In this document: piece after piece, positions 4,295 through 23,603 of the stretch | Layout: every line of letters starts with the position of its first letter | How positions within the stretch are numbered: position 1 is the first letter of the stretch | Made by a program: the position numbers and the translations under genes | Source of the DNA: Patescibacteria group bacterium | GTDB lineage: Bacteria; Patescibacteriota; Minisyncoccia; UBA9983 | DNA: 60,703 nucleotides | Assembly: GCA_040752125.1 (NCBI GenBank) | Contig: JBFMFK010000005.1 | Span: forward strand, 1-60,703 | Direction: 5' to 3' | The notes under the pieces: model-generated | Databases searched by the model: none | Seen by the model: only the letters and a program-made list of their open reading frames with translations | Told to the model about the DNA's origin: nothing

Positions 4295-5065
4295 ATGATG
4301 AAAACGAATAAAATTTTAGGACAGCACTTCCTCAAATCAAAGAAAATCATTAAAAATATCATTAAAGCCGCTGAATTAAAAGAAGAAGACGCGGTTTTGG
4401 AGATTGGGCCTGGTAGGGGAATTTTGACTGAAGAATTAATTAAACATAGCGGCAAGGTAATAGCCATTGAGAAAGATAAAAGATTAGCAGAATATTTAAG
4501 GACAAAATTCAGCGATAGCATAAAAATGTCACAATTAAAGGTGATTCATGGAGATATATTAAAAATTAAAAACCAATTTCGCCAAGTTGGGACAAAATTC
4601 AAAATTGTTGCAAATATCCCGTATTATTTAACTTCAAAATTATTTAGACAATTTCTTCAATCAGATTTTCAGCCATCCAAAATAGTTTTTATGGTCCAAA
4701 GAGAAGTGGCCGAAAGAATAGTGGCCAGAGGCGGGAAAGAAAGTATTCTCTCCATCAGTATTAAAGTCTACGGCAAGCCAAAAATTATATGTAATGTTCC
4801 AGCAAAATATTTTTCCCCAAAACCAAGAGTGCATTCCGCAATTCTCCTTATAGATAATATCTCCAAAAATTTTTTTAGAGATATCAATGAAAAAAACTTT
4901 TTTAATCTCGTAAAAAAAGGGTTTTCCAGCAAGCGTAAATTATTAAAGAATAATCTTATGTCAGACACTCGGTATCTAAGAGAGTGTAAAATTTCAGAAA
5001 GGGCCCGGGCAGAAAATTTATCTCCCAAGGATTGGAAATGCCTTCTAAAAACCCTGAAATTATGA
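4295..5065 (+). CDS. rsmA: 16S rRNA (adenine1518/1519-N6)-dimethyltransferase
   Basis: LGQHFL and EIGPGRGILT SAM-binding motifs, NIPYY motif. Length is typical of KsgA/RsmA. Confidence 0.9.
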   Translation: MMKTNKILGQHFLKSKKIIKNIIKAAELKEEDAVLEIGPGRGILTEELIKHSGKVIAIEKDKRLAEYLRTKFSDSIKMSQLKVIHGDILKIKNQFRQVGTKFKIVANIPYYLTSKLFRQFLQSDFQPSKIVFMVQREVAERIVARGGKESILSISIKVYGKPKIICNVPAKYFSPKPRVHSAILLIDNISKNFFRDINEKNFFNLVKKGFSSKRKLLKNNLMSDTRYLRECKISERARAENLSPKDWKCLLKTLKL

Positions 5066-6649
5066 AAAAATTTACCATCTTCTTTGTTTTGTTTTTGTCC
5101 TCTTCTTTTCTTCTTGATTTGGCCTTTGAAAAATCTAATTTTTGGATCCTTGTCCTAATTGGCCTTATCCCCTTATTTTTATTTATTGAATGGTCAAAGA
5201 ATTGGAAAAGAGCCTTTTGGGGAGGATGGCTTCAGGGAATGATTTTTTTTGGCATTTCGTTCCGTTGGCTTTTTTCTATCTTTCCTAATGAAACACTTGG
5301 TTTAACCAGCGATTTAAAGGGTTATTTATTTATTTTTTTTGTATGGTTTATCCTTTTTACTAGCAGTGCTTTTGCTTTTGGGCTTTTTGCTGGCACTGTA
5401 AACTGTAAAATTTCTTAAGGTTTTTGATTGGAAAAAGTACCAGATGCTTTTATCAATCCCAGTCATATGGATGATTACAGAATATCTCAGGGCATGGATT
5501 TTTAGCATAGTTACCTGGGGTAAGGGCGCACTTCTCGGTCCTTTTTGGACGTTTTCGCATCTTGGTTATATTTTGGCAGACACGCCAATCTTTTATTTAT
5601 CACGTAGCATTGGCCTCTATGGATTAAGTTTTATTGTGGCAATGATGAATGTTATAATTTTTTTATTAATTAAGAACGGGAAATTAAAAATTATAATTTT
5701 GTTATTAATGATTTTCTTTGGTGTCAGTTATTTTTATGTCCATCTTTTTTCTAAAGAGAATCATATTGACAGTCAATCATCAATTAAGGTGATGCTTCTT
5801 AGTATTCCGGCAAGCGATGCCTCTTTTTATCGCGAAGGTTTTTTAAAAATACTTGATGATGAAAAAATAACTTCTGATAATCAGCCGAACATTGTTCTTT
5901 TCCCTGAAGGACTCTCTTTTTTAAGTTTGTATGGAGAATTGGAAAGGCCGGTTTTAGAAAAAATTTTTCCGAACCAAGAAAGAAACGGCTATGTTATTGC
6001 TAACAAAATGTCATTTACAGAGAGAGGAAGAATAAGCGAGATTGTTTACCGTGACCAAAAAGGAAATTTGATAAAAAGGCAAGAAAAAAATTTCTTAATT
6101 CCTGCTGGAGAAGTATTGCCCTTGGGCTTAAAAATTTTCTCAAAAATTATCCATGCAGAAAATAACATAAAATCCTTCTCGGCCAATCGAGAATTAGCAA
6201 GCGGCGCAGGAAACAAAGCAGTTAGTTTGGGCAAGATGAAAATAGGGGCATTTTTATGTTCAGAATTATTATCGCCATTGTTTTCTCGTCTTCTCGTTAA
6301 TGATGGCGCCCAAATTATCTTTAATTCTTCAAGCCACTCTTTATGGCGAGGCAATCAGCGTCTGGATAGAGAGTTGGAATTAATGGCAAGATTTGTGGCT
6401 ATGTCCAATAAAAGATACTTTTTGCAGTCAACTTTTGATGGCCCAATATATGCAATAAATACAAGGGGTTTTATTTTTCAAAAGTTCTTTGGCCAACTTC
6501 CATCCATTAGTTTGGTTGCAGCAGGATTGGAGAACAGCAAAACCTTAACAACTCGCACAGGCGATACCCCTATAATTTTATCAGGATTGTTGGTTTTGGT
6601 TATTTTTATATATCACAGCCGCAGATTCCGGTCATTGGATCCCAAATAG
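5062..6649 (+). pseudogene. lnt: Apolipoprotein N-acyltransferase (Lnt)-like gene split by a frame change near 5400
   Basis: The N-terminal polytopic part is in frame 1 (ATG 5062 overlapping the rsmA stop as ATGA, stop at 5416-5418). The remainder is in frame 2, open from 5402. That part carries the TEYLRAWIF..W membrane motif and a C-N hydrolase domain (LFPEG, CSELL). Combined length is about 520 aa, as in Lnt. Confidence 0.6.
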
Positions 6650-7253
6650 CATTGCAGCATGCACAAACTGCATTTAAGCATCCACAAGGAGCCTTTCCGC
6701 AAAAACAAGCACAACAAGGTGCCCAAAGATTGACTCCAGGTATAGGGCCTATGCCTGCACCGGGTTTAGCGCAGATCTGCGCTTCTGTTTTTTCCCCAAA
6801 GACTATTTTTTTAATTAAATCAAAAAGATTGGAAGAGGATTGGGTTTGATTATTTCCTCTGCATGAGGATGAGACAAAATGAGGGGATTGTTTGATGCTT
6901 AAAGGCAGGAGGCCGCTCCGATAATTTGCAGCCTCAATCTCGTTTATCTTTTTCCATTCTGCAAGGCCTGTAGCAAGAAACCGGTCCGCATCTTCTTGGG
7001 GTATCATATTATGATCTTTAAGATAGATTATTGCTTTTTGGGCGAATTCAAAAATCTCTTCTTGATTTTGAAAAGAAACCCGGCTTTCAGTTTTAATAGA
7101 TTTTTCATCTACAAGCATATCCTGCCAGTGAGAAAGGAGGTCTCTATATGATTGAGGATACATTTTCTGGAAAATTTTTTGTTCAAGCTGAGGATCAAGC
7201 GGCGAGACCTTGTAAATCAGCTTAGAACTTTCAATTGGCTTGTTTTCAGGCAA
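6606..7253 (-). CDS. Hypothetical protein with an extremely Cys-rich C-terminal tail
   Basis: 215-aa ORF with no signal peptide. The last ~58 residues contain 12 Cys (..APCCACFCGKAPCGCLNAVCACCNAIWDPMTGICGCDI). The 3' end overlaps the convergent lnt 3' end by 44 nt. Confidence 0.5.
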   Translation of the reverse strand: MPENKPIESSKLIYKVSPLDPQLEQKIFQKMYPQSYRDLLSHWQDMLVDEKSIKTESRVSFQNQEEIFEFAQKAIIYLKDHNMIPQEDADRFLATGLAEWKKINEIEAANYRSGLLPLSIKQSPHFVSSSCRGNNQTQSSSNLFDLIKKIVFGEKTEAQICAKPGAGIGPIPGVNLWAPCCACFCGKAPCGCLNAVCACCNAIWDPMTGICGCDI

Positions 7254-7507
7254 TGTCTCCTCAATTGTTTCTGACTTCCTATTAAAGTAAAGGAAAAAGT
7301 TTTTCCTTTTTCAAAAAAGCGCTGCAGAGCTTGGCTCTTAAAGATTTCATTTTTTTGCTGATCACTGCTGTAAATATCATTTCTTGCCGGAATTTGTTCT
7401 TTGGTGCTAATATTGTTTTCCCTATTAAAAATAAAAAACAGGGCCAAAATTAAAAGAATTAAGACAACAACTGTGGCAATGATTATGAGTTTTGTCTTTT
7501 TGGACAT
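7217..7507 (-). CDS. Small N-terminally membrane-anchored protein
   Basis: MSKKTKLIIIATVVVLILLILALFFIF anchor. TGcTATAAT promoter-like box on the minus strand, 12 nt upstream of the ATG. No family recognised. Confidence 0.45.
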   Translation of the reverse strand: MSKKTKLIIIATVVVLILLILALFFIFNRENNISTKEQIPARNDIYSSDQQKNEIFKSQALQRFFEKGKTFSFTLIGSQKQLRRHCLKTSQLKVLS

Positions 7508-7646
7508 AACTTAATAACAATTATAGCACTTTTTTGAAAAGAGAATTAAAATATCCACAGCCAGGTTAATTTTTTAAGTTTTTCTCAAAAAAAGTGCTAT
7601 AATTTAAAAAGGCAGAGGTTTAAAAACGGCCTTAAGCCGATATATT

Positions 7647-8627
7647 TTGGATTATCTTCCTACAAAAAAATTTGTTCTTATTTTACTTTTGCTTCTTATC
7701 ATTGGAGGAGGGGCGTTTTTGTTATTTAAAAAATGGGATCAGGTAAGAGAAAAAAACCCTTTTCTCAAAAATCAGGAATCCAATCTCGCAATGATCAAGG
7801 GAGCCCAAATAGATTCTGACAATGATGGATTAAAAAACTGGGAGGAAATTTTATGGAGAACCAATCCTGATAATCCTGACACAGACAGCGACGGTCTTTT
7901 TGATGGCGAGGAAGTAAGACTTAATAAAAATCCCCTCAAACCCGGACCCAATGATTCTTTAAGCGATGTGAAAAAAGATTTGGGTGAAAATGCAACAACA
8001 TTGCAAAATCCACCAGAGAATCTTTCACAAACAGAGTCTCTGGCAAGAAGTCTTCTCTCTTCCTATTTTCTTCTCAAACAAGAGGGAAACTGGAATGAGG
8101 AGACACAGCAAAAACTTGTAGATGCAGCTCTGAAGACGATTACTCAAGACGATTTTAAAAATGAATACTCTCTTGCCAATATAAAAATCATTAAAGACAA
8201 CAGCACCCAGAATTTAAAAAATTATGGCAATGAAATTGTTGAGACAATGAACAGGGATTCAATCAATATTACAGAAAATGAACTGACTGTTCTTAATCGC
8301 ATTACCACCAAAAAAGAGCCAGTTGAAGAATTTGATGTTTTTATTGACTCCTACAATAAAATTATCAATGACCTTCTTAAACTGGCAGCCCCTTCAGATA
8401 TTGCTGAATTGCATTTAAATTTGATTAATAATTTTTTTAAGATCAGGACGAGCGTGGAGAAGATGAAGCAAATAAATAACGACCCCTTAGCAGGATATGC
8501 TGGATTGAATTTATACACCACAGCTGCCAAGGAAATTTATTCAACCAAAAGGGCAATAGCCGATTTTTTTAAAAACAGAGGAATTGTCTTTACGGAAAAT
8601 GAACCAGGTAATTTTTTTAATAATTAA
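7647..8627 (+). CDS. Membrane-anchored protein with thrombospondin type-3-like Ca-binding repeats (first gene of the T4SS-like locus)
   Basis: TTG start in the track. N-terminal TM segment. DSDNDGLKNWEE..NPDNPDTDSDGLFDGEE Asp-rich repeats. Confidence 0.55.
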   Translation: MDYLPTKKFVLILLLLLIIGGGAFLLFKKWDQVREKNPFLKNQESNLAMIKGAQIDSDNDGLKNWEEILWRTNPDNPDTDSDGLFDGEEVRLNKNPLKPGPNDSLSDVKKDLGENATTLQNPPENLSQTESLARSLLSSYFLLKQEGNWNEETQQKLVDAALKTITQDDFKNEYSLANIKIIKDNSTQNLKNYGNEIVETMNRDSINITENELTVLNRITTKKEPVEEFDVFIDSYNKIINDLLKLAAPSDIAELHLNLINNFFKIRTSVEKMKQINNDPLAGYAGLNLYTTAAKEIYSTKRAIADFFKNRGIVFTENEPGNFFNN

Positions 8628-8645
8628 TTTTAATGATTTAAATAT

Positions 8646-9506
8646 ATGCAAATAAAAAAAATATTTATCATCCTTTTGATAACAGTGGTTTTGCTGACAT
8701 CTGAATTTTTGAATATCCAGAGAGCAGAGGCAGCCGTGCCTGTGTTTGAAATCGGAGCTAATTTGGCTGTCAATACCATCACCCTTGCAATGACCACTGA
8801 ATTGCAACTAAAAGAGTGGGTTACGGATTTGCTGGCTTGGGTTGCGACCACAAAAATTTTGGAAATTTTCACGCAGATGACTGTTAATTGGATTAATTCA
8901 GGGTTTAATGGCAGTCCCACTTTTGTAACCAATCCCCAGAGTTATTTTACTGATCTTTTTGATGAATCTACCAGAATCTTTTTAAATGAAGTAAGTCAGA
9001 CAAGTTCTCCATTTGCCAATACTATGACCCAGCTTTTTCAGGCTCATCAATCCTATGCAACATCTCCTAATTCTTTTCAAACAACAATGAGCAGGAATCA
9101 GCTACCTAATCTTCAGCAGTTTTACGGAGATTTTTCAGCTGGCGGTTGGAATAGCTGGCTGCAAATGGTGGATAATCCTTCTAATAATCCTTATGATGCC
9201 TATCTCCGTTCTCATGATGAATGGCAGAGAAGAAGTCAGATTACTATGGAAAGAGGGAAGAATGAGCTTCAGCAGGGACAGGGATTTTTAACTCTCAAGG
9301 AATGTGCGCAAGAAGATAATGCAGGTAATTGTATTGACTGGCAAAACACCACTCCGGGCAAAGTGATTGTTGATAATCTTAGCAAGGCCTTGGGAATGCC
9401 AATGGAAAGAATAGCCAATGCTGATGAGCTTCAAGAAGTAATTGGAGACATATTGACTGACTTAGTCAATCAATTGATTAATCAGGGTTTGAGATACATT
9501 AGTTAA
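8646..9506 (+). CDS. Secreted hypothetical protein (T4SS-like locus)
   Basis: Signal peptide ending in ..QRAEA|AVP. No recognisable family. Co-directional and closely spaced with its neighbours. Confidence 0.55.
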   Translation: MQIKKIFIILLITVVLLTSEFLNIQRAEAAVPVFEIGANLAVNTITLAMTTELQLKEWVTDLLAWVATTKILEIFTQMTVNWINSGFNGSPTFVTNPQSYFTDLFDESTRIFLNEVSQTSSPFANTMTQLFQAHQSYATSPNSFQTTMSRNQLPNLQQFYGDFSAGGWNSWLQMVDNPSNNPYDAYLRSHDEWQRRSQITMERGKNELQQGQGFLTLKECAQEDNAGNCIDWQNTTPGKVIVDNLSKALGMPMERIANADELQEVIGDILTDLVNQLINQGLRYIS

Positions 9507-9534
9507 TCCAGAATGATAGATTTTTAAATTTTTT

Positions 9535-11589
9535 ATGATAAGAAAATTCTTATCTTATAGTCTAATATCGGGAATAATTCTAGTAATTGCCCTGGGCCCT
9601 TTTCTGGTTCATTATGCCCATGCCTCTATTTTTGGTTGGCTTTTTGGAGATGTTCTTATTGACCTTGTATGGGGTTCTTTTGTGAAGATTATTGCCTTTG
9701 TTGGCAATATTATACTTTGGCTGGTGGCACGAGTTTTGTGGCTTACTGCCCAATTATTTAGTTCAACATTAAAATTAACACTTTTAAACAATACTTATTC
9801 TGAAATACCAGCAGTAACTGTTGGCTGGAGTTTAAGCCGCGACTTAGTTAATCTTTTTTTTATTTTTATTCTTTTATATATTGCTATTGCCACGATTTTG
9901 CAAATATCTGGATATGGAATAAAAGATCTTTTGGTTAGAGTGATTATCATCGCCCTTTTAGTTAATTTCAGCTTAATGATAACAAAGGTGGTCATAGACG
10001 CTTCTAATATCTTAGCTTTGGGATTTTATAATCGTATTCAGACAATAACCCCAGCAGGAGTTGTAAATTATGGAGATATAACCGGCGTTTTGATGCAAGG
10101 AACCCATATGAACGATATTTTTAATGTTGATGGATGGGAAGGTTTTGATCCTAATGATAATTCTGAACAAACAATGAGAAGTGTAATCATCAACACTATT
10201 TTTGGGTCTATTTTAATTTTGGTCTTGGCTTTTGTTTTTTTCGCTGCCACTATTTTGTTTATTATCCGGACCATTGTCCTTTTGTTTTTAATGATTCTTG
10301 CTCCTTTGGCTTTTTTGGCAATGGCCTTGCCAGCCACAAGATCTTTAGCTCATAGATGGTGGACTACCTTGTTTCATCAAGCATTTTTTGCCCCTATTTT
10401 TCTGTTTTTTGTCTGGATTGTGGCCAATATTATTGCTTCTGAACAGTTTAATAATGCAATTAATATGACCGGCGTTGATGCAGCCAGCAGAATTTCTGAG
10501 GCATTTGGAACAGCAACTGGCGACCCCAGCCCTCATACCGGCATTATTGTCAATTACCTTTTATTAATAGGATTGAGCATTGGTTCTTTGGTTGCAGCAA
10601 AACAAATGGGAGCCTATGGTGCTGGCTCAATGATAAAATTGGGCAGATGGGCCAAGGGCCAGGCATTGGGAGCTGTAGGAAAGGTGACTCTTGGTCGTAC
10701 AGCCAGCAGGGTTGCTCAATCAGAAACACTGAGACAGGCAGCAGCAGAAGGAAAAATGTTTGCCATGCCTATGCTCAAAGGGATGGAACGTATGGCCAAG
10801 ATTGGTGATTATGAAAAGGATCGAGAGAAAAGGATTCAGACTGCCATGAACCTGCCGCCGCAATTAAGAGCCCAAACAATGGCCACTATGAACAAAAGAG
10901 ACAGAGAGGAAATGTTTAAGAAGATGTCTGCCAATGAAAGGGCGCAAATTTATGAAAAGTCTAATCTGGAGATGAAAGGGCATCTTGATGAATTTATGTC
11001 AGAGATGTCTTATGAAGAACAAGAGAAAACAAGAAAGGCAAGAGCTGATTTAGCGCTTAAAAAGAGAGACGAAGAATTGGCCAAGTTTTTCTTTGAGAGT
11101 CCTGATGATCTAAAACAGGAAATAATTACCTCAATGAAAGAGGCAAAAAGAACTGGTTTTGTTGATGAGCTCAAGAAATCACAAGAAGAACTAGACGAGA
11201 TTCTTAAGGCAGAAGACGAAACCTCCAAATCTATCTCCAAGATAATCTTGGCTATTGATCCAACCCTAGAAAAAGACCAGGAAAAGAGACGAACAATAAT
11301 GATGGAGCTTAAAGCATCTGATGCAAAATATCTTTCTCATGACGCCAGAATGAACCCGAGCATTACTGTTAATCTCACGCCAAGGCATTTGGAGAACCTG
11401 ATGAAGAGCGAAACATTGACCAATGAAGAAATAACAACCATAAAGAATAATGCCACTGAAGATCAAAAGAAATATATAGCGCAAGGACCATCAAGGGTTT
11501 TCTGGGGTTATGGAGAAGAAAAAAAAGAAGAACCCATGATTAAAGAGGCAGGCAAGTATGAAAGTCTGGATAAGTATAAGGCCACATAA
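9535..11589 (+). CDS. Polytopic VirB6/TrbL-like membrane protein with a long K/E-rich cytoplasmic tail
   Basis: About 7-8 hydrophobic segments over the first ~370 aa, then a ~300-aa charged coiled-coil-like region. Sits upstream of PrgI-like and VirB4 genes. Assigned from topology and context, not motifs. Confidence 0.5.
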   Translation: MIRKFLSYSLISGIILVIALGPFLVHYAHASIFGWLFGDVLIDLVWGSFVKIIAFVGNIILWLVARVLWLTAQLFSSTLKLTLLNNTYSEIPAVTVGWSLSRDLVNLFFIFILLYIAIATILQISGYGIKDLLVRVIIIALLVNFSLMITKVVIDASNILALGFYNRIQTITPAGVVNYGDITGVLMQGTHMNDIFNVDGWEGFDPNDNSEQTMRSVIINTIFGSILILVLAFVFFAATILFIIRTIVLLFLMILAPLAFLAMALPATRSLAHRWWTTLFHQAFFAPIFLFFVWIVANIIASEQFNNAINMTGVDAASRISEAFGTATGDPSPHTGIIVNYLLLIGLSIGSLVAAKQMGAYGAGSMIKLGRWAKGQALGAVGKVTLGRTASRVAQSETLRQAAAEGKMFAMPMLKGMERMAKIGDYEKDREKRIQTAMNLPPQLRAQTMATMNKRDREEMFKKMSANERAQIYEKSNLEMKGHLDEFMSEMSYEEQEKTRKARADLALKKRDEELAKFFFESPDDLKQEIITSMKEAKRTGFVDELKKSQEELDEILKAEDETSKSISKIILAIDPTLEKDQEKRRTIMMELKASDAKYLSHDARMNPSITVNLTPRHLENLMKSETLTNEEITTIKNNATEDQKKYIAQGPSRVFWGYGEEKKEEPMIKEAGKYESLDKYKAT

Positions 11590-11597
11590 AATAATTT

Positions 11598-12107
11598 ATG
11601 GAATACACTCAAGAACAATTAAAGACTGCTTATAAAAATCTTCCACCAGACCTCCAAGACGCCATTTTTAATGTTGAATCTGCGCAAGTAATACAAATTA
11701 TTGGCAAGAATAATAATCTTACTGCAGAGCAAATCGGCAGTCTGGCTGAAGAAATAGCCCTGATTATGCTAGGGTTAAATCATCCAACAGAATTTATTCC
11801 AAATCTTTCTCATCATTTGAATATTGACAAGGAGGCTGCAAAGAAAATTGCCCAAGAGGTCAATGACCAGCTTTTTTCAAAAGTCAGGCATTCACTCAAA
11901 AAAATCTATCACCTAGAGGAAACGTCACAGATAAAAACAGAAATTATCAAGGAAATTGAAAAAGAAGAGCCGAAAATTACAGATATTCTCCAGAACCTCA
12001 AGGCACCGACAGAAGAAGGAGTTTCCAGAGCACCGATGCAGGAATCTGAACATTCAAATTCAGACGCGAGATATCCTCAGGGAGATCCCTATCGGGAACC
12101 CATATGA
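11598..12107 (+). CDS. Soluble acidic hypothetical protein (T4SS-like locus)
   Basis: 169-aa ORF with no TM segment. The stop overlaps the next start (ATGA). Confidence 0.45.
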   Translation: MEYTQEQLKTAYKNLPPDLQDAIFNVESAQVIQIIGKNNNLTAEQIGSLAEEIALIMLGLNHPTEFIPNLSHHLNIDKEAAKKIAQEVNDQLFSKVRHSLKKIYHLEETSQIKTEIIKEIEKEEPKITDILQNLKAPTEEGVSRAPMQESEHSNSDARYPQGDPYREPI

Positions 12108-12514
12108 AAAAGTTTCAAGTTCCACAATTTATAGAAATTGAAAGCAGAATTTTTGGCCCTCTGACACTGAAACAATTTATCTATCTGATCGGAGGAGCAG
12201 GCATTATTTTTATTCTTTATAAATTTTTGCCATTTTGGTTAATGATTTTTTTCTCCATTCCCGTAGGGGGAATTGCTGTAGCCCTCGCCTTTTATAAGGT
12301 TAATAATCAGCCATTTATAAGAGTTTTGGAAAGTGCCTTTCATTATACGACTTCTTCAAAAATATATATCTGGAAAAAGCAACAGATAGAGAAAAAGCCA
12401 GAGGCCAAAAGAGAAACAAAATTGCCTGAACATCGGCAAATGTATATACCCAAAATCACAAAAAATAAATTAAAAGATTTGGCTTGGAGTTTGGATATTA
12501 AAGAAAATAGATAA
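12104..12514 (+). CDS. PrgI/VirB3-like small two-TM T4SS protein
   Basis: The N-terminus MKKFQVPQFIEIESRIFGPLTLKQFIYLIGG followed by two TM helices is the PrgI-family signature. It sits immediately upstream of VirB4, as in Gram-positive T4SS. Confidence 0.65.
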   Translation: MKKFQVPQFIEIESRIFGPLTLKQFIYLIGGAGIIFILYKFLPFWLMIFFSIPVGGIAVALAFYKVNNQPFIRVLESAFHYTTSSKIYIWKKQQIEKKPEAKRETKLPEHRQMYIPKITKNKLKDLAWSLDIKENR

Positions 12515-12515
12515 T

Positions 12516-13190
12516 ATGGCAATTGTCTCAAAAGCAACACAAGAATTTTTGCCAATAAGAGAGATTAGAGAGGGAGTGGTTACTCTCAAAGACGGTTCTC
12601 TGCGCGTAATTTTAATGGCGTCGTCTTTGAATTTTGCATTAAAATCTGAAGATGAACAAAATGCCATCATTGCCCAATATCAGAATTTTTTAAATTCCAT
12701 TGATTTCCCTCTCCAGTTTTTTATTGAATCCAGAAGATTGGATATTGAGCCGTATTTGCTTACATTAGACGATGCATTGAGGAAGCAGATTAACGAACTT
12801 TTAAAAATTCAGATCAGAGAATATATAGAATTTATAAAAAATTTTGTAAAATCAACAGACATTGTTTCAAAAACATTTTATGTTGTTGTGTCCTATACTC
12901 CCACTGTTGTCATTCCCGTCAAACAAACAGGCCTAAAAAAATTTATGGGTTTTGGAGGGGGGGCCGGAAAACAGACTGAAAAAGAGGAAAAGGATACAGA
13001 ATTTGAAGAGGCAAAAATCCAGCTCCAGCAAAGAGCATCGGTGATTGAAAGTGGCCTTGCCCGAGTGGAAATCAAGGCAGTGATATTGAATTCTGAAGAG
13101 CTGATAGAACTTTTTTACAAATTATTCAACCCCGGAGAATCAGAAAAATATTTTAAGGGCAATAAGGCGATGCTAGAAGGGGCAATATAA
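12516..13190 (+). CDS. T4SS accessory protein resembling a VirB4/TrsE N-terminal domain
   Basis: TQEFLPIREIREGVVTLKDGSLRVILMASSLNFALKSEDEQNAII... resembles the N-terminal region of Gram-positive VirB4-like ATPases. No Walker motifs. Confidence 0.4.
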   Translation: MAIVSKATQEFLPIREIREGVVTLKDGSLRVILMASSLNFALKSEDEQNAIIAQYQNFLNSIDFPLQFFIESRRLDIEPYLLTLDDALRKQINELLKIQIREYIEFIKNFVKSTDIVSKTFYVVVSYTPTVVIPVKQTGLKKFMGFGGGAGKQTEKEEKDTEFEEAKIQLQQRASVIESGLARVEIKAVILNSEELIELFYKLFNPGESEKYFKGNKAMLEGAI

Positions 13191-13202
13191 TTAATTTTCA
13201 AT

Positions 13203-15071
13203 ATGGCGTCATCAATATCAGATTTATTAAAAAGAAACAAAAAGCCAGAAAAGAATCAAGAAGAAACGGTTCCTTTGATTCCTCAAGAGATATACGAAAC
13301 CGAAACCGGTGTTCTTGAGCTTCAGGACATTATTGCACCTTCGGCACTGGAGATAAATTCCAGCATGATAAAAATAGGCGAGAAAGTTGCCAGAATATTT
13401 TTTATCATTTCTTATCCGCGCTATCTGGCAATGCAATGGTTCTCCCCTGTGATCAATTTGGATAAAATTTTTGATGTTTCTATTTTTATTCACCCAGTAG
13501 AAACCGGCACTGTTCTACGTCAGATGCAAAAAAGGGTTGCCGAAGTTCAATCGCAGATTCATATGCGTGAAGAAAAAGGACTTGTCAGAGATCCAATGCT
13601 TGATACTGCCTATCAGGATTTGGAAGATTTGCGAGATAAATTGCAGCAGGCTCAGGAAAAATTATTTTCTGTTGGCATCTATATAACCATTTACGCTGAT
13701 AATGTTGAAGAATTAAACAGGTTGGAAAGGGAGGTCAGAACTGTTTTGGAATCAAAATTAGTTTATGCCAGACCAGCACTTTTCCAGCAAATGCAGGGCC
13801 TGAAAAGTGTTCTGCCATTCTGCACTGATGAACTGGAGGTCAATATAAAAATGAATTCCGCACCTCTTTCTAGCATTTTCCCCTTTGTTTCATTTGATCT
13901 TTCTGCTGATAAAGGAATTTTATATGGAATCAATCGTCATAATAGCAGTTTAGTCCTTTTTGACAGATTTTCTTTAGAAAATTACAACTCAGTCATCTTT
14001 GCCAAGGCCGGTGCCGGGAAATCTTATGCTACCAAATTAGAAATTTTAAGAACAATGATGTTTGAGACCGATGTGATAGTAATTGATCCAGAGCGGGAAT
14101 ATGAATATCTGGCCGAGGCAGTTGATGGAAGATATTTTAATATTTCCTTAACTTCTAAGCACCATATCAATCCCTTTGAGCTTCCTCCTGTCGGAGAGAA
14201 TGAATCTCTAGACGATGTCCTGCGTTCAAATATCATCAGTTTGATTGGTTTATTTAGATTGATGCTGGGCGGACTGACGCCAGAAGAAGATGCCATTATG
14301 GATAAGGCAATCACAGAGACTTATGCTGCAAAGGATATCACCCCAGAGGTAAATTTTTCCAATGCAGTTCCGCCAACACTGTCTGATTTGGAACTGGTCT
14401 TGGCTGGAATGGAAGGAGGCGATTCTTTGGCCCAAAGATTATCAAAATACACCAAGGGAACCTGGTCGGGATTTATTAATCAGCCAACCAACGTTGATAT
14501 CAACAAAAAACTTGTTGTCTTTTCAGTCAGAGATATGGAAGATGAATTAAGACCAGTGGCAATGTATATTATCACTCATTTTATCTGGAATATTATTAGA
14601 AGAAACTTAAAGAAAAGACTGCTCGTAGTTGATGAAGCGTGGTGGATGATGAAATCACCGGACACAGCCTCTTTCTTGTACAGCATTGCCAAAAGGTGCA
14701 GAAAATATTTTTTAGGTCTAGCAACAATTACTCAGAATGTTGAAGATTTTATGAGTTCGCCCTATGGTGTGCCAATCATCACCAATTCTTCTGTTCAGTT
14801 ACTCTTGAAGCAGTCTCCTGCATCAATTGATGTTGTGCAAAAGACATTTAATCTTACTGATGAAGAAAAATTTCTCTTGCTGGAATCAGATGTTGGTGAA
14901 GGCATTTTCTTTGCCGGACTAAAGCATGTGGCTATAAAGATTTTGGCTTCTTATACTGAAGACCAGATTATCACTTCAGATCCGGCCCAGCTTTTGGCAA
15001 TTAAAAAGGCAAAAACTGAATTTTCGCAGGAAAAAGAGCAAACATTATCAGCACCCAATTTGCAAAAATAA
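13203..15071 (+). CDS. virB4: VirB4/TraC-type T4SS ATPase
   Basis: Walker A FAKAGAGKSYATK, Walker B LLVVDEAWWMM, and an N-terminal IAPSALEI...YPRYL block typical of VirB4-like proteins. Confidence 0.8.
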   Translation: MASSISDLLKRNKKPEKNQEETVPLIPQEIYETETGVLELQDIIAPSALEINSSMIKIGEKVARIFFIISYPRYLAMQWFSPVINLDKIFDVSIFIHPVETGTVLRQMQKRVAEVQSQIHMREEKGLVRDPMLDTAYQDLEDLRDKLQQAQEKLFSVGIYITIYADNVEELNRLEREVRTVLESKLVYARPALFQQMQGLKSVLPFCTDELEVNIKMNSAPLSSIFPFVSFDLSADKGILYGINRHNSSLVLFDRFSLENYNSVIFAKAGAGKSYATKLEILRTMMFETDVIVIDPEREYEYLAEAVDGRYFNISLTSKHHINPFELPPVGENESLDDVLRSNIISLIGLFRLMLGGLTPEEDAIMDKAITETYAAKDITPEVNFSNAVPPTLSDLELVLAGMEGGDSLAQRLSKYTKGTWSGFINQPTNVDINKKLVVFSVRDMEDELRPVAMYIITHFIWNIIRRNLKKRLLVVDEAWWMMKSPDTASFLYSIAKRCRKYFLGLATITQNVEDFMSSPYGVPIITNSSVQLLLKQSPASIDVVQKTFNLTDEEKFLLLESDVGEGIFFAGLKHVAIKILASYTEDQIITSDPAQLLAIKKAKTEFSQEKEQTLSAPNLQK

Positions 15072-15074
15072 TTT

Positions 15075-15587
15075 ATGCCAGAAGAAACGACAATAGAAGA
15101 AGAAAGAATGGCAAACTTGCAAACAGCCAGGTTTCAAGATGAACAGGATGAACAGGCAGATGAAGAAGAGGAAAAAAAGATTCAGAAAACCAAACAAAGA
15201 ATAAGCAATATTACTGCCATACTAATAATTATAGTAGCTCTTCTCTATGACGGTCTTGATGCCTTGATATCCCTTTTGCAAGCCATCCCGGTTATAGGCG
15301 GTGTTATCGCGATTTTTTTTGGTTCAATATTAGATATTTGGGCTTGGCTCACATTTTATGTATGGTTTAAAGTAAAAGGTGTAAGTTTAAGCGACAGTAT
15401 TGCAAGGGCAATATGCTATAATGCAGGTCTGTTATTAGAATTAATACCCGTACTTGGAGCATTACCGTTTTGGACTTTATCTGTTATAATAATGATATTA
15501 ATAGTAAAGGCAGAAGATAAATTGGCAAAAGTGCCAATAGTTGGCAAGGCGGTGTCAATGACTACCGGAGCAACAGCAGGCGAATAA
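15075..15587 (+). CDS. Membrane protein with an acidic N-terminus (T4SS-like locus)
   Basis: D/E-rich N-terminal 40 aa, then 4 hydrophobic segments. No family recognised. Confidence 0.45.
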   Translation: MPEETTIEEERMANLQTARFQDEQDEQADEEEEKKIQKTKQRISNITAILIIIVALLYDGLDALISLLQAIPVIGGVIAIFFGSILDIWAWLTFYVWFKVKGVSLSDSIARAICYNAGLLLELIPVLGALPFWTLSVIIMILIVKAEDKLAKVPIVGKAVSMTTGATAGE

Positions 15588-15592
15588 AATAT

Positions 15593-16645
15593 ATGCAGAA
15601 AAATATTTTAATAATTTTCTTTTCAATATTGCTGCTGATTGTCTTTAGTTTTTTCTTTCAAAATCAGGCAAAAGGACAGGGATTTAGTTTACCAAATTTA
15701 AATATATCTCTTCCTCCTTCTGACCAGATTTCCTCCCCCGATGAGGTGAAAAATTTTGCCCTGGATTTGAAGCCAAAATATCCTGGACCAAATCAGGAAG
15801 TCAATGTCAGTGCCAAAAGTTATTCTTTTGACATTGACCGTGCTGTAATCACCTGGTCAATAAACGGCATCCAAAAATTAAAGGGCGTGGGAGAAAAAAA
15901 TTTTACCTTTCGGACTGGAGATGTTGGTTCAAAAACCACCATTAATATTATTGTCGTCTCTTTGGATGGTCTCAAATTGGAAAATAATCTTATTATCATT
16001 CCTGCTGATGTAGATATTTTATGGGAGGCAGAAAATTATATTCCCCCGACATATAAAGGAAAAGCATTACCAACTTCTATCTCTAAAATAAAAATCTCTG
16101 CACTGCCAAATGTAGTCATTGATGATGTTAAGTTTTCTCCTTCCAAACTTATCTACAATTGGGAAATTAACGGCAAAAAGAAAATTGATATTTCTGGCTA
16201 TGGAAAAAATTCTTTTTCATTTAAAAGTTCTGCCATGATCGGCCAGGATAATATCAAACTGACAATGACTGATTATAACAAAAAGATTCTTGTAGAAAAG
16301 AGAGTATTAATTAATATTGTTCAGCCAAAAATTATTTTTTACGAGAAAAATCCCTTGGCTGGAATAAAATACAATTTGGCACTTTCAGATAAGATTGATT
16401 TAGGTGGCGGAGAGATGAGTATTAAAGCTGAACCGTACTTTTTTTCTCTCAGTGATTTAGACCAGCTTTTCTATCAATGGAATATGAATAATAAAGATAT
16501 TAATATGGAAAATGATCCCGCAATTTTGAATCTAAGGACGCCCGAAGGAGGCAGTGGTTATTCATTTATTAATCTAAGAGTTAAAAATCCTCTAAGCATC
16601 CTTCAGTTCGCAGACAAATCTTTAACAATTAATTTTGGAAGATAG
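15593..16645 (+). CDS. Secreted beta-rich hypothetical protein (T4SS-like locus)
   Basis: Signal peptide (..FFFQNQAKG). Composition suggests repeated Ig-like modules. No family recognised. Confidence 0.5.
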   Translation: MQKNILIIFFSILLLIVFSFFFQNQAKGQGFSLPNLNISLPPSDQISSPDEVKNFALDLKPKYPGPNQEVNVSAKSYSFDIDRAVITWSINGIQKLKGVGEKNFTFRTGDVGSKTTINIIVVSLDGLKLENNLIIIPADVDILWEAENYIPPTYKGKALPTSISKIKISALPNVVIDDVKFSPSKLIYNWEINGKKKIDISGYGKNSFSFKSSAMIGQDNIKLTMTDYNKKILVEKRVLINIVQPKIIFYEKNPLAGIKYNLALSDKIDLGGGEMSIKAEPYFFSLSDLDQLFYQWNMNNKDINMENDPAILNLRTPEGGSGYSFINLRVKNPLSILQFADKSLTINFGR

Positions 16646-16649
16646 GTTT

Positions 16650-17531
16650 ATGATAAAAATTATTTTTTCAATTATCGTCATAATGGCCATAATAGCACCA
16701 ATTGCCCTTTTTGCTCAAGATTATCGCTTGTTAGAACCCTTACCCGGTCTCCCAGGTTCCTTGCCAGTCGAAAGTGGATTTAGTCAATATCTTGGCTGGG
16801 TTTATAAATTCGCCATCGCAGCAGCAATCTTCTTGGCTGTTCTAATGATTGTGATCGGCGGCATTCAGATAATTGCTGGCGGAGCAAGTGAGACAGCACG
16901 GTCAAATGCCAAAAAAAGAATCAAGGACGCCATTCTGGGTCTTCTTCTGGTGCTTATTGCTTATCTGATTTTATATTGGATTAATCCTGATTTAGTGACT
17001 GGAAGGTTTAATATTCCCACAGCACAAATTAGAGGCGCTCCTCCGCCCACACCCACACCTACACCATCTCCAGGAATAACTTTTAATAACAATCCTTCTA
17101 CTGAATTAAGTAATTTTATGGATTGTATGATCAATAGTCCATGGGGGATACGCAACCTAAGAATAACCTCTACAACTGATAACAATATTGCTACAGGAGC
17201 TTGCAACCCCACTGATCCTAATGAACTTTTTAATAACAGAGACAATTGTCAACATCGCCAATATTCTTGTCATTATGGTGGACACAATTGTATAACAAGA
17301 GGATCATTTGCTATAGATGTTGGTATCACTGGTACAGACGGCACAAATATTGCCTATAGAGATGTAGCTAGAGTAGCAGCTGATTGCGGTGCCCGATTTG
17401 GAAGTCACGACCTGACAGCCAGATGCAAGAATGAAAGCAGTACCAGCGCACCCCATTATCACCTTAGTATCGGACCTTTTTTTATGTGTGGTTGCGATAC
17501 TAGTATGACACTTTGCGCTGCTCAAGATTAA
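16650..17531 (+). CDS. VirB2/TrbC-like T4SS pilin domain fused through a Pro/Thr linker to a Cys/His-rich putative LAS-type (M15-like) hydrolase domain
   Basis: Signal peptide MIKIIFS..ALFA|QD. LEPLPGLPG...IAAAIFLAVLMIVIGGIQIIAGGASETARSNAKKRIKDAILGLLLVLIAYLIL matches the two-helix T4SS pilin pattern. Linker PPPTPTPTPSP. The C-terminal domain has SCHYGG..GSFAIDVG and HYHLS motifs. Confidence 0.6.
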   Translation: MIKIIFSIIVIMAIIAPIALFAQDYRLLEPLPGLPGSLPVESGFSQYLGWVYKFAIAAAIFLAVLMIVIGGIQIIAGGASETARSNAKKRIKDAILGLLLVLIAYLILYWINPDLVTGRFNIPTAQIRGAPPPTPTPTPSPGITFNNNPSTELSNFMDCMINSPWGIRNLRITSTTDNNIATGACNPTDPNELFNNRDNCQHRQYSCHYGGHNCITRGSFAIDVGITGTDGTNIAYRDVARVAADCGARFGSHDLTARCKNESSTSAPHYHLSIGPFFMCGCDTSMTLCAAQD

Positions 17532-17534
17532 AAA

Positions 17535-18746
17535 ATGGAAATGAATAAAAAAATAATCATCATTGCAATCGTTGTTACAGTAATTCTAGGATTGATCGCT
17601 GGAGGTTATTTTCTATTTATTAAAAATAAGGGCAAAACAGGCGGTATCGCAGATATAATTTCAGGTTTTTTCCCAACCGGGCAAGAGAAAGATATCTTGC
17701 AAAATAATCTCATTCCTTCCAATGGCGAAAATATTGGTGCCAATCTCGCGGGTTCAGGAAATTTTTTCCAGATTTCGCATAATCCGGTTTCCGGCGCTTT
17801 TGCCACAAGCGCTTTTGTCAGATATATTGAGCAGTCAACCGGCCACATTTATGAAGTAGATTTACAGAAAAAAAGTTCTAAAAGAATTTCTAATACAACC
17901 ATCCTTGGCTCTTTTAATTCTGTTTGGTCATTTAATGGCGATAAATTGGTTATTGGTTATCTTGATGAATCAGATTATGGTCTTCAGGTTAAGAATTTTT
18001 CTCTTAAGATTTCAGATGAAACTGCTACCTTCACAGGAACCTCCACCGCACAAGGAATTTTCCTGCCCACTGATACAATTAGCATTGCCTCATCACCATC
18101 AGAAGATAAAATATTTTATCTTGAGAAATCAGGCGATTCTACAACCGGGATAATCGCTACTTTTGAAGACAAAAAAAGGGCAGCCATTTTTTCTTCAGTC
18201 ATCAGTGAATTTAATGTCAGTTGGCCAAATAAGAATAACATTGCTCTTTTAACTAGGCCATCAGCAGCAATCACAGGATTTTTATATTTTATAGATATAA
18301 AAACAGGTGCCCTCCAGAAGATTTTAGGCGACATAAAAGGATTAACAGCGCTTGTTTCGCCTGATGGAGGGCAAGTTTTTTACAGCGAGAACAGAAATAA
18401 TAACATCGTCACTAAGATCTACGATGTTAAAAACAAAACTGCTGATGAATTTTATCTAAGGACACTACCGGAAAAATGTGTTTGGAGTAGAAAGGAAAAA
18501 GATATTATTTTCTGTGCAGTGCCGACAAATCTTCCACAAGTTGATTACCCGGATTACTGGTACCAAGGTTTGATTTCTTTTGAAAATGATTCTATCTGGA
18601 AGATAAATTTTGTTTCAGGGGAGACCACCGAGCTTTTAAAAGACACAAATTTGGATATAATCAATCCTCTATTCACTCTATCAGAAGATTATTTGATTTT
18701 TATCAATAAAAAAGACAACACTCTTTGGGGCTTGAAGTTAAAATAG
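17535..18746 (+). CDS. Membrane-anchored periplasmic/extracellular beta-propeller-like protein (TolB-like by composition)
   Basis: N-terminal TM anchor. Repeated short strands with SPDG/..D-G-..-I-.. patterns. Last gene of the co-directional block. Confidence 0.45.
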   Translation: MEMNKKIIIIAIVVTVILGLIAGGYFLFIKNKGKTGGIADIISGFFPTGQEKDILQNNLIPSNGENIGANLAGSGNFFQISHNPVSGAFATSAFVRYIEQSTGHIYEVDLQKKSSKRISNTTILGSFNSVWSFNGDKLVIGYLDESDYGLQVKNFSLKISDETATFTGTSTAQGIFLPTDTISIASSPSEDKIFYLEKSGDSTTGIIATFEDKKRAAIFSSVISEFNVSWPNKNNIALLTRPSAAITGFLYFIDIKTGALQKILGDIKGLTALVSPDGGQVFYSENRNNNIVTKIYDVKNKTADEFYLRTLPEKCVWSRKEKDIIFCAVPTNLPQVDYPDYWYQGLISFENDSIWKINFVSGETTELLKDTNLDIINPLFTLSEDYLIFINKKDNTLWGLKLK

Positions 18747-18790
18747 AAAGACTCAAGATGAGAAGCAAATAAAAGTTCAGAGTTACATTG

Positions 18791-18820
18791 AAGAGCGATG
18801 CTTAAGTAGCGCTCTTTTTA
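18791..18820 (+). terminator. Intrinsic terminator after the T4SS-like locus
   Basis: Stem aAGAGCG/CGCTCTt with a 12-nt loop, followed by TTTTATTT on the plus strand. Confidence 0.5.
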
Positions 18821-18821
18821 T

Positions 18822-20822
18822 TTAAAACAATAAGGGTATCAAAAGAAGGGCAATTATATTGACGACCTTGATCATTGGGTTAATGGCAGGACCAGCAGTG
18901 TCTTTATAAGGATCGCCGACAGTGTCGCCAGTCACAGCTACCTGATGGGCAAAAGATCCCTTGCCACCAAATTCACTGGTTGGCGAACTTTCCTCAATAA
19001 ATTTTTTGGCATTATCCCAAGCAGCTCCGCCAGAGGTCATGGAAATTGCCAGAAAAAGTCCTGCAATAATTGCTCCGATTAATAAGCCGCCAAGAGCCTT
19101 TGGTCCTAAAATAAAGGCGACAAGAATAGTAATGATAATTGGCAATATGGCAGGTTTAATCATTGCTTTTAAGGCGGATTTAGTAGCAATATCAACGGCC
19201 TTGGCATAATCAGGTTTTGATTTTCCTTCCATAATTCCTTTAATGTCTTTGAATTGTCTTCTTACTTCTTCAACAATACTTGAGGCTGCCTTGCCAACAG
19301 CCTTCATAGCCATTGAGGCAAAGAGAAAAGGAAGAAGGGCACCAATCAAAAGCCCTGATAAGACAATTGGGTCTTGCAGCTCAATTTTGATTGATTGAGA
19401 AAATTTCTCTATTTCAGAAATATAGGAACCGAATAAAACCAAAGTTGCCAAGCCAGCTGAGCCAATTGCATAACCCTTTGTCACTGCCTTGGTTGTATTG
19501 CCAACAGCATCAAGAGCATCTGTTGATTTTCTCACTTCTGGAGGCAGGTTTGCCATTTCAGCAATACCACCAGCATTGTCAGTTATTGGACCGAAAGAAT
19601 CAATAGCCACAATAATTCCAGTTAAAGAAAGCATTGCCACAGCCGCGACCGCAATCCCATAAAGTCCAAAAAGCCAATGTGCAAAAAGCATGCCAATGGC
19701 AATGACAATAACCGGCAGGGCTGTTGATTCCATAGAAACAGCCAGCCCGGTAATTATATTTGTTCCGTGACCAGTGGTTGATGCTTTAGCAATGGATTGA
19801 ACCGGAGAGAATTTTTTTGAAGTATAATATTCTGTAAAAACAACGATAAGGAAAGTAATTAAAATCCCGATAATTCCGGAAAGATATAATTTAATCCAAT
19901 CTCCAGAAATATTACTAAATCTCGCCGCTGGAAGAAAGAAGAGAGCGGAAATAATCGCAGCGGCAGTCAATCCTTTATATAATCCAGCCATAATATTTAT
20001 TTCTCCCAAGGATTTTTTTGGGAGACGGACAAAAAAAGTACTGATTAAAGAAGCAATAATAGCCAATCCTCCTAAAAGAAGAGGGAAAAGAACAGCTAGC
20101 ATATTTGATGAAAAAAGAAGAGAACCCAAGAGCATCGCAGCAATAATGGTAACAGCATAGGTCTCAAAAAGATCAGCAGCCATTCCTGCACAATCACCAA
20201 CATTGTCACCAACATTGTCAGCAATAACCGCAGGATTTCTTGGGTCATCTTCAGGAATACCTGCTTCAATTTTTCCTACTAAATCAGCACCAACATCAGC
20301 CGCCTTAGTATAAATTCCTCCTCCCAGACGCGAAAAGACAGAAATTAAAGAACCACCAAAACCAAGACCAATGAGAGAATTTATATCTTTTGTGATTATC
20401 CAAAACAAAGAAACAACCAGCAGGGCCAAACCAGCGACTAAAAACCCGGTGACCGATCCTCCTAAAAAGGCCAATCTAAAAGCTTGATTAACCCCGGATT
20501 TTGCTGATTCTGCCACCCGAGAATTAGTCATTACTGCTGTAAGCATACCAAAATAGCCTGCTAGGGCAGAGGCAAAGGCACCGATTAAAAATCCCAAGGC
20601 TGTTTTGAAATTAAAAAAATACCAGAGTAAAATGATTAAAACAATTGCCACTAAAGAAATAGTTTTATACTGTCTTTTCAGATAGGTCTTTGAACCTTCC
20701 TGGATTGCCTTACTTATCTCCTGCATTTTCTCATTTCCTGCTGATTCTTTAAGAATTTTCCCGCGGATAAAAAATGCGGAAGCAATGGCGATTAAAGATG
20801 ATAAGATTGCAAAATAAACCAT
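18822..20822 (-). CDS. hppA: Membrane-bound H+(or Na+)-translocating pyrophosphatase
   Basis: Polytopic protein with diagnostic V-PPase blocks ([45 protein letters not shown]). The start is taken at MVYFAILSS (ATG 20822) rather than the tracked 20927. Confidence 0.9.
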
Positions 20823-20927
20823 AATTTTTAGAATGTAATACGTAAACTGTAATAAATAATCCGTAATATTTAATTTATCAAAATAATCTCCAAAATACAA
20901 TTTCAAAAATTTACCACACACCTGCAA

Positions 20928-20970
20928 CAGACAACGATGTGCAGCACTCGGTGCTGCACATCGTTGTCTG
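20928..20970 (-). terminator. Perfect 20-bp G+C-rich hairpin between nusA and hppA (attenuator, terminator or processing site)
   Basis: CAGACAACGATGTGCAGCAC / tcg / GTGCTGCACATCGTTGTCTG. No canonical U-tract on either strand, so terminator function is uncertain. Confidence 0.35.
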
Positions 20971-20995
20971 AAAATTACTGATTACTTGTTACTTG

Positions 20996-22153: not shown

Positions 22154-22258
22154 ATTTTTATAAGTTTTTATAAAATTAAAGTCCGTTTGAAGACGGACTA
22201 ATTTAAATATAAACAATTAAGTTTTCTTGTCAAGGAAAAATTTGCTATATTATACATA

Positions 22259-23600: not shown

Positions 23601-23603
23601 TCT

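Follow-up and report, generated by a model that had tools for sequence, protein, structure and literature searches.

The window analysed here, a stretch of 60,703 nucleotides from a Patescibacteria group bacterium (contig JBFMFK010000005.1), carries at 7647-18746 on the + strand an eleven-gene locus for a type IV secretion system (T4SS). In our assessment, this is very probably a chromosomal T4SS of the Patescibacteria clade in the eleven-gene layout of Paceibacteria, derived from monoderm (MPF-FATA) conjugation machinery and serving host contact and exchange, not conjugation. An earlier note on this DNA had put the locus forward as an undescribed apparatus; however, the apparatus was published in 2023 (Wang et al., Cell, PMC10633639) and surveyed in 2025 (Quinonero-Coronel et al., Microb Genom, PMC12102498), and the locus is an ordinary member of this known family. 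It adds a further example to a system already catalogued in thousands of genomes and leaves the general picture unchanged. The residual novelty lies in a modular architecture, in which the pilin is joined to enzymes and a secreted protein (O2) to lectin-type domains, and the analysis lists the components of the Paceibacteria layout: eleven conserved genes, with fold classes for several that were previously unlabelled.

The eleven co-directional open reading frames (ORFs; O1-O11) lie at the coordinates that the earlier note had reported and are as tightly spaced as it had described, with 18, 28, 8, -4, 1, 12, 3, 5, -11 and 3 nt between consecutive ORFs from O1 to O11 (range -11 to +28 nt). Relatives were sought by scanning one genome per GTDB species, which gave 583 confirmed VirB4 matches, and the best 80 (71-80% identity) were kept as loci. 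The following products correspond to core components of T4SSs and to the pilin.

9535-11589, + strand: O3, an extended VirB6/TrbL-like polytopic membrane protein with several transmembrane (TM) segments, assigned via its orthologs
12104-12514, + strand: O5, PrgI/VirB3-like, with two TM segments (Pfam PrgI 1e-10; orthologs in 78 of the 80 loci)
12516-13190, + strand: O6, TrsD-like, the equivalent of a VirB4 N-domain (present in 80/80 loci)
13203-15071, + strand: O7, a VirB4 ATPase without the N-domain (Pfam P-loop_TraG 4.4e-26, also AAA_10 and DUF87)
16635-17531, + strand: O10, a VirB2-like pilin with a C-terminal domain at 17073-17528 (T4SS_pilin 1.1e-6; NCBIfam Mbov_0395 pilin-like 1.2e-4)

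These matches bear out the earlier naming of a PrgI/VirB3-like protein, a VirB4 ATPase and a VirB2/TrbC-like pilin. Both ATPase motifs of O7 were located (Walker A GAGKSY beginning at residue 270, Walker B LLVVDEAW at 473), and a failure to match VirB4/TraC families, which the earlier note had named as fatal to its reading, was not seen. The hhalign alignment of O7 with PrgJ of pCF10 covered PrgJ residues 222-773 only (probability 99.7%; profile E = 2.5e-55), and O6 matched the NCBIfam models VirB4_plasma (5.6e-9), CD1110 (1.2e-7) and TrsD (3.5e-6), all in their N-terminal part; VirB4 is therefore split into O6 and O7 in this locus. O6 lies directly upstream of O7, has neither a TM nor any other hydrophobic segment and is presumably cytoplasmic; a relative carries the label PF26593 (TraC-like). 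The seven products left after the naming of O3, O5, O7 and O10 had been described as belonging to no nameable family and as all having a signal peptide or an anchor, neither of which holds, as O6 is TrsD/VirB4-N-domain-like by NCBIfam and both O4 and O6 are without a hydrophobic segment.

The VirB6/TrbL assignment of O3 stands through its orthologs, 7 of 46 of which match Pfam TrbL (best 1.3e-7), and found no support in the window protein itself, which has no Pfam or NCBIfam match. The O3 profile gave coiled-coil noise only against the PDB, and the C-terminal domain of ~300 aa is charged and without hydrophobic segments. No VirB8-like (PrgL) or PrgD match was found among the eleven families by profile or hhalign against single pCF10 proteins, a comparison that recovered the VirB4-PrgJ pair alone and lacks the sensitivity to argue against VirB8-like or PrgH-like relationships; O9 and O11 fall in fold classes other than the VirB8-like NTF2. 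Comparing the eleven families all against all with hhalign revealed no hidden paralogy (for example, of O8 with the pilin) above 30% probability.

The relatives of this VirB4 number thousands, and the closest (75-85% identity) are encoded in metagenome-assembled genomes (MAGs) of Patescibacteria, Parcubacteria and Paceibacterota; by record title, the 80 loci belong to Terry-, Campbell-, Zambryski-, Taylor-, Nomura-, Kaiser-, Wolfe-, Adlerbacteria and others. Among VirB4 proteins of plasmids, the best 25 matches listed, with 27-35% identity, came without exception from Bacillota or Actinomycetota, and several of them are annotated as CD1110 family. Of the 3,035 Patescibacteria genomes in the published survey, 2,417 encode VirB4, nearly always from a single clade that is nested within MPF-FATA; TrsD, VirB3/PrgI, VirB6 and VirB2-like pilins are encoded near virB4, and in Paceibacteria KsgA, RnpA, RpmH, DnaA and DnaN are frequent neighbours (PMC12102498).

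All eleven products are conserved among the 80 loci, each from a different species-level Paceibacteria genome (tblastn). Where the flank suffices, the gene order is rsmA/ksgA-O1-O2-O3-(O4)-O5-O6-O7-(O8)-O9-O10-O11, so the conservation of synteny that the earlier note had suggested checking across Patescibacteria was found among these Paceibacteria, and its description of the system as minimal gives way to a conserved eleven-gene module across Paceibacteria. Median identity was 73% for VirB4, 52% for TrsD and 50% for PrgI, versus 26-37% for the exported proteins. In relatives the usual context is an M23/LysM peptidase (- strand), uvrD, ksgA, the cluster, jag, yidC, yidD, rnpA, rpmH (- strand), dnaA, dnaN and a penicillin-binding protein gene; given the rnpA, rpmH, dnaA and dnaN genes on the right, the cluster sits at the replication origin in these genomes. 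The right flank in the window (18822-22216) has hppA and nusA instead, as seen in comparison with locus L083 (14972-19464), and shares this arrangement with locus L004 alone. The window is devoid of the origin genes (dnaA, dnaN, yidC and rnpA among them); a lineage-specific rearrangement moved the cluster, or the origin. The same order and chromosomal site across dozens of species argue for vertical inheritance under selection. The left flank is of the conserved type (M23/LysM, uvrD, ksgA, T4SS), as in L083, and includes at 1103-2149 (- strand) an M23 peptidase with two LysM domains, which might act as a further wall hydrolase alongside the T4SS or have no functional connection with it.

Genes for DNA transfer and mobility were looked for outside the cluster in 22 ORFs of ~256 aa or more and in some smaller flanking ones, which takes in every ORF of at least 360 aa; these were housekeeping, type IV pilus or competence genes. 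As the earlier note had reported, no relaxase, VirD4-type coupling protein (T4CP), VirB11 or integrase was found among the scanned ORFs of the window, and phmmer searches with pCF10 PcfC, PcfG, MobC and integrase had no match across the window and the 80 loci kept from relatives. Likewise, no relaxase, T4CP or integrase was found within ~10 kb of virB4 in the 80 relatives. A repeat scan found no boundary or flanking direct (att-like) repeats around the cluster, again in line with the earlier observation, and the GC content is 0.370 within the cluster versus 0.366 outside. An integrative and conjugative element (ICE) or a prophage-like island was considered and rejected on composition, missing boundary repeats and conserved synteny. 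VirD4 homologues are encoded far from virB4 in most Patescibacteria genomes, and relaxases are rare (PMC12102498), so a lack of DNA-transfer functions is a property of the locus and need not extend to the organism; the earlier claim that the system lacks all of them is borne out within the 60.7-kb window only. Given the chromosomal position without a relaxase or coupling protein nearby, the system was probably repurposed away from conjugation, as the literature also has it (PMC10633639; PMC12102498; PMC12857230). With the relationship to MPF-FATA, this agrees with the earlier idea of a Gram-positive-style T4SS turned to another use.

The pilin O10 comprises a signal peptide, a two-helix VirB2-like hairpin, a Pro/Thr linker (PPPTPTPTPSP) and a 150-aa C-domain with 10 cysteines, with TM-like segments at 9-27, 59-77 and 98-116. 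Pilin profiles recur among its orthologs (T4SS_pilin in 43/48, TrbC in 7/48). The hairpin alone is conserved across them: 51 of 61 exceed 200 aa, and 10 of 61 are bare pilins. Depending on the species, the extensions matched NlpC/P60 (4), CHAP (2), VanY (one), YkuD, SLT_2, SLT, 3D and Amidase_5, and every enzyme family identified in them is a cell-wall enzyme. In the Paceibacteria layout, a VirB1-like wall-cutting function is thus often fused to the pilin and exchanged between enzyme families. We found no description of a pilin-enzyme fusion in the literature searched, the 2025 survey (PMC12102498) included.

No Pfam model detects the C-domain of the window O10. An exhaustive HMMER search recovered 41 relatives of it, mostly pilin fusions (23 match T4SS_pilin and 7 TrbC), and an alignment of 31 sequences showed D36, C59, H61, S65, H67, Y68, A80, D82, H128, H130 and C139 to be invariant, in the pattern ITSxTDxNI...CQH...SCHYGG...AxD...HxHxSIG...CGCD. 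When the profile was compared with the PDB, the top 15 matches were all Hedgehog N-terminal domains, at marginal E-values of 0.1-1.4, with SCHYGG..AxD and HxHxS aligned to SLHYEGRAVD and HIHCS of Hedgehog, segments that we take to contain the zinc ligands. Three other O10 orthologs have the canonical SxHxxGxAxD together with HxH or ExxH at the same position. From the Hedgehog alignment and these canonical motifs, the C-domain is likely a zinc peptidoglycan peptidase of LAS/M15 type. The S-x-H-Y-G-G...A-x-D...H-x-H pattern of the family would correspond to the ligand motifs of the LAS hydrolases (M15/VanY, Hedgehog-N, M23); unlike theirs, its His-Asp spacing is H-x14-D (canonical, H-x6-D), with a Cys-containing insertion of ~5-8 residues between the ligand motifs. 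The predicted topology (signal peptide, then out-in-out) places the C-domain outside the cell. In F-type pili, both pilin termini face outward, and with an extracellular C-domain the enzyme could therefore decorate a pilus.

The remaining genes of the cluster encode accessory proteins, most of them exported or membrane-bound.

7647-8627, + strand: O1, an N-terminal anchor (TM 9-27), TSP3 calcium-binding repeats (Pfam TSP3_bac 1.1e-6) and a helical C-domain
8646-9506, + strand: O2, a secreted helical protein with a signal peptide and a conserved Cys-Cys beta-hairpin
11598-12107, + strand: O4, a soluble protein with a conserved N-terminal domain and no TM, signal or hydrophobic segment
15075-15587, + strand: O8, a small, fast-evolving membrane protein with an acidic N-terminus and about four TM segments, detected in 30 loci
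15593-16645, + strand: O9, a signal peptide or anchor and three immunoglobulin (Ig)-like beta-sandwich repeats, with orthologs in 77/80 loci
17535-18746, + strand: O11, a membrane-anchored (TM 7-25) beta-propeller of the TolB/DPP-IV class (PDB TolB profile E = 0.0016)

Orthologs of O1 were found in 46 loci, with TSP3 matched by 18 of 41, and the matches of its profile in the PDB were confined to calcium-binding segments. The conserved part of O2 is a ~280-aa domain with nearly invariant G86, G89, P91, C220, C229 and P237. Three of its 45 orthologs are as short as the window copy, which is the bare conserved domain, and the other 42 are longer than 350 aa; part of the extensions carry F5/8-type-C (discoidin), Ig-like, fn3 or chitobiase-C (CHB_HEX_C) domains. 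Based on these fused domains, O2 is a candidate adhesin or pilus-tip component. An AlphaFold2 (AF2) model of O2 from 40 homologs (predicted local distance difference test, pLDDT, 67.7; predicted template modelling score 0.44) is helical, with a beta-hairpin holding the Cys pair, and a VirB5-like or other known fold found no support in a Foldseek search of the PDB (best E = 1.5). O4 has no PDB or Pfam match; it is presumably cytoplasmic and possibly an adaptor, and its family ends, after a variable linker, in a nearly invariant DPYREP tail that looks like a short docking peptide. In O9, the invariant W88, W190 and W296 are ~100 aa apart and mark three ~100-aa repeats; its orthologs match BiPBP_C (7/44), Ig_3 and PKD, its PDB profile matches to Hoc/Ig are weak, and we infer that it is a wall-spanning scaffold. 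Orthologs of O11 match PD40, DPPIV_N and DUF5050, and two also carry PG_binding_1.

Taken together, the components would fit the following scheme. VirB4/TrsD, VirB3 and VirB6 would together make up a platform at the membrane, which would pull pilin subunits out of the bilayer and assemble them into a pilus of the conjugative type. The extracellular C-domain of O10 would cut peptidoglycan of the cell itself or of the host, at the assembly site or at host contact, while O2 might act as adhesin or tip, and the calcium-binding O1, the Ig repeats of O9 and the beta-propeller O11 might build a wall-spanning scaffold. Most likely, the machine would act as a pilus-based, wall-breaching device that makes contact with the envelope of the host and allows exchange across it. 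The role in host contact is proposed by analogy with the homologous T4SS cluster of Southlakia epibionticum, which is essential for epibiotic growth by transposon sequencing and resembles Gram-positive conjugative T4SSs (PMC10633639). We tentatively consider a further possibility, less likely than its opposite: the Paceibacteria T4SS may be a modular organelle for breaching host envelopes, in which the pilin with its interchangeable peptidoglycan enzymes and O2 with its interchangeable lectin/Ig modules are matched to the wall chemistry of the host and set the host range. If so, O10 and O2 would be swap-prone modules of a polymorphic 'key' system analogous to the receptor-binding proteins and endolysins of phages. 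What the T4SSs of Patescibacteria carry, and whether they form pili, matters given that the group is a large share of bacterial diversity.

Several points weigh against a host-contact T4SS of this clade. Membership in the Patescibacteria VirB4 clade was assigned from 71-85% identity to named MAG proteins. Essentiality is known from one Saccharimonadia species only, whose layout differs (a pilin array, and separate peptidase and lysozyme genes), and there is no experiment on any Paceibacteria T4SS; no pilus has been seen. The peptidase reading of the O10 C-domain comes from an alignment at the level of motifs, with E-values of 0.1-1.4, and an AF2 model of this domain from a two-sequence alignment was unusable (pLDDT 40.8). 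The fold of O2 has no known relative, its adhesin role being read from domains fused to orthologs only. In addition, a VirD4-like protein may be encoded elsewhere in the genome, in which case DNA transfer would be possible.

The gene content of the window invites comparison with a DNA-uptake (competence) T4SS, like Helicobacter ComB or archaeal Ced, that would import DNA together with ComEC, the type IV pilus, ComM and RecJ. The window lacks a relaxase and a T4CP and holds ComM (148-1092), PilB/PilC (23604-26562), RecJ (34542-36233), ComEC (37225-39583) and RecG (55215-57326), and T4SS genes co-localise with comF, recG and radA in the class ABY1 (PMC12102498). We nevertheless regard this as unlikely. 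In S. epibionticum, deletion of comEC abolishes competence and is non-lethal, whereas the T4SS is essential, so that the two functions are separable (PMC10633639; PMC12857230). The competence genes of the window are 5-20 kb off, in separate clusters with other genes between, the T4SS neighbours in most relatives are ksgA and dnaA, not competence genes, and VirB7/9/10 of the ComB type are absent. A decayed or domesticated ICE, stripped of its relaxase, coupling protein and integrase and now a non-functional remnant or mobilised in trans, is extremely unlikely in our view. VirB4, TrsD, PrgI and the pilin do have homologues on ICEs and plasmids of Bacillota and mycoplasmas, and an element of this kind is the probable origin of the system (PMC12102498), but all eleven ORFs are intact and tightly spaced, their order and chromosomal site are kept across dozens of species, and the locus equals its flanks in composition, with att-like repeats and an integrase not found.

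The polymorphic enzymatic C-domains on a conserved N-terminal module also resemble the architecture of polymorphic toxins, and Patescibacteria are capable of parasitising or lysing their hosts (PMC11880426). The locus might thus be an effector translocator or interbacterial killing T4SS, like the X-T4SSs of Xanthomonas and Stenotrophomonas, injecting for example variable peptidoglycan hydrolases; secretion of proteins without a T4CP is known in Bordetella Ptl and Brucella (PMC12102498). This, too, is very unlikely: following a Sec signal, the enzyme is covalently linked to the two-TM hairpin of the pilin, which makes it tethered to the membrane or pilus and not a free cytoplasmic substrate, no immunity-gene candidate was identified beside O10, where the adjacent conserved genes are O9 and O11, and an XVIPCD-like signal and a T4CP are absent. 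Such a system overlaps the host-contact reading that we prefer, as wall breaching is common to both.

The operon is bounded by two further elements.

7519-7554 and 7569-7604: the arms of a 36-nt imperfect inverted repeat upstream of O1, from an inverted-repeat scan and direct reading
18790-18824, + strand: an intrinsic terminator hairpin, with the stem AAGAGCG/CGCTCTT at 18791-18816 followed by a T-run (UUUUUAUUU)

An extended -10 box is present in each arm of the inverted repeat (on the + strand TGcTATAAT, 7596-7604; on the - strand a mirror copy); the two probably drive divergent transcription, of the T4SS operon on one side and of the minus-strand ORF at 7217-7507 on the other. The terminator, which the earlier note had recognised, folds at -12.3 kcal/mol (z = -2.23); a consensus terminator scanner overlooked the hairpin because its loop exceeds 8 nt. 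Outside these elements, the flanks are ksgA (~2.6 kb upstream of the cluster) and lnt on the left and hppA and nusA on the right. The housekeeping genes lnt and hppA had been named correctly, except that a frameshift divides lnt into two ORFs read in different frames, 5032-5418 (LNT_N 1-93) and 5444-6649 (LNT_N 101-158 and CN_hydrolase); either the gene is a pseudogene, or the assembly contains an error here. Almost all relatives have no lnt between ksgA and the T4SS; locus L005 alone has it there, on the opposite strand. Two small minus-strand ORFs are also inserted after ksgA in the window. The stretch between hppA and nusA contains, at 20928-20970, a perfect 20-nt palindrome whose arms are 3 nt apart (CAGACAACGATGTGCAGCAC / GTGCTGCACATCGTTGTCTG), probably serving as terminator or regulatory site.

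A type IV pilus cluster (22259-29299) begins 3.5 kb downstream of the T4SS and includes the following genes.

22259-23209: a histidine kinase, with a 121-aa ORF next to it
23604-25352: the PilB/T2SSE ATPase
25354-26562: PilC/T2SSF

PilC is followed by three ORFs of 150-169 aa, possibly pilins, and a 428-aa protein without a Pfam match. Much of a DNA-uptake and recombination toolkit (ComM, RecJ, RecG and ComEC) is encoded within 40 kb of the T4SS; ComEC itself is split into a Competence/DUF4131 ORF (37225-38721) and a metallo-beta-lactamase ORF in another frame (38729-39583). An 809-aa ORF at 44875-47304 is interrupted by a LAGLIDADG homing-endonuclease intein (residues ~224-571); it was considered as a hidden T4SS ATPase and rejected, as the host protein is Endonuclease Q (PDB 5zb8 and 7k30, E ~1e-43, residues ~590-794). 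Its start is overlapped by the end of an ORF at 44043-44909 in which a nucleotidyltransferase (Polbeta / NTP_transf_2) is fused to a HepT-like RNase, an MNT-HEPN toxin-antitoxin-like pair in one polypeptide. A tRNA-Ile with the anticodon UAU (tat) at 51478-51549 would read AUA without lysidine modification, which is uncommon in bacteria; the DUF763 ORF called from 51492 overlaps this tRNA, so its true start is probably further downstream.

Among known systems, the window locus is closest in kind to the Patescibacteria-clade T4SSs of S. epibionticum (SEML1_0006-0019) and of the 2025 survey, which a review of that year called the newest members of the T4SS superfamily (PMC12857230). It is likewise chromosomal and of monoderm (MPF-FATA) ancestry, with VirB4, a separate TrsD-like protein, PrgI/VirB3, a VirB6-like protein and a VirB2-like pilin. 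The S. epibionticum cluster, whose pilins are essential, is without a recognisable coupling protein or relaxase (PMC10633639), as is the cluster in the window, and the ksgA neighbour is the one reported for Paceibacteria. In S. epibionticum, six divergent pilins are encoded in an array, and the peptidase and the lysozyme have genes of their own downstream of virB4, whereas the window has one pilin fused to a putative peptidase. The window also carries the six accessory genes (O1, O2, O4, O8, O9 and O11), and its copy is not beside dnaA/dnaN, unlike those of most Paceibacteria relatives.

With the MPF-FATA conjugation systems (prgD-pcfH of pCF10, CTn2/CD1110, trs of pGO1), the locus shares VirB4/PrgJ homology, the PrgI family, TrsD as in pGO1 and a wall-hydrolase function. 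In contrast to them, it is without the PcfC T4CP, the PcfG relaxase, MobC and a PrgB-type adhesin, PrgL and PrgD are not detectable, and it is fixed in the chromosome with a VirB2-like pilin, which Gram-positive systems generally lack (PMC10633639). NCBIfam also ties O10 and O6 to mycoplasma ICE families (Mbov_0395 and Mbov_0397).

A T4SS-like cluster with the same core was found in Pontibacillus sp. ALD_SL1 (Bacillota; NZ_CP062975.1, 350-361 kb; locus L082 6015-17033), on a ~897-898-kb replicon typed as non-mobilizable. It encodes, in order, a pilin-like protein, proteins of 145, 779, 116 and 274 aa, a VirB4 without the N-domain (34% identity) and a 1,050-aa peptidoglycan metalloendopeptidase (M23); flagellar genes follow a few kb downstream. 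The profiles of the window families matched as follows.

O10 against the 145-aa and 151-aa proteins: E = 1.2e-15 and 1.5e-13
O3 against the 779-aa protein: E = 4e-11
O5 against the 116-aa protein: E = 2.6e-9
O6 against the 274-aa protein: E = 5.6e-42
O7 against VirB4: E = 4.1e-137

Family profiles gave no credible counterpart of O1, O2, O4, O8, O9 or O11 in this cluster. The hydrolase of Pontibacillus is separate and two pilins precede VirB6, whereas in the window the enzyme is fused to the pilin, which is encoded downstream of VirB4. As the Pontibacillus replicon has the same core, the pilin-bearing core without a relaxase is not exclusive to Patescibacteria, and the six accessory genes are the lineage-specific part of the system. 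This replicon could serve as a culturable model for that core.

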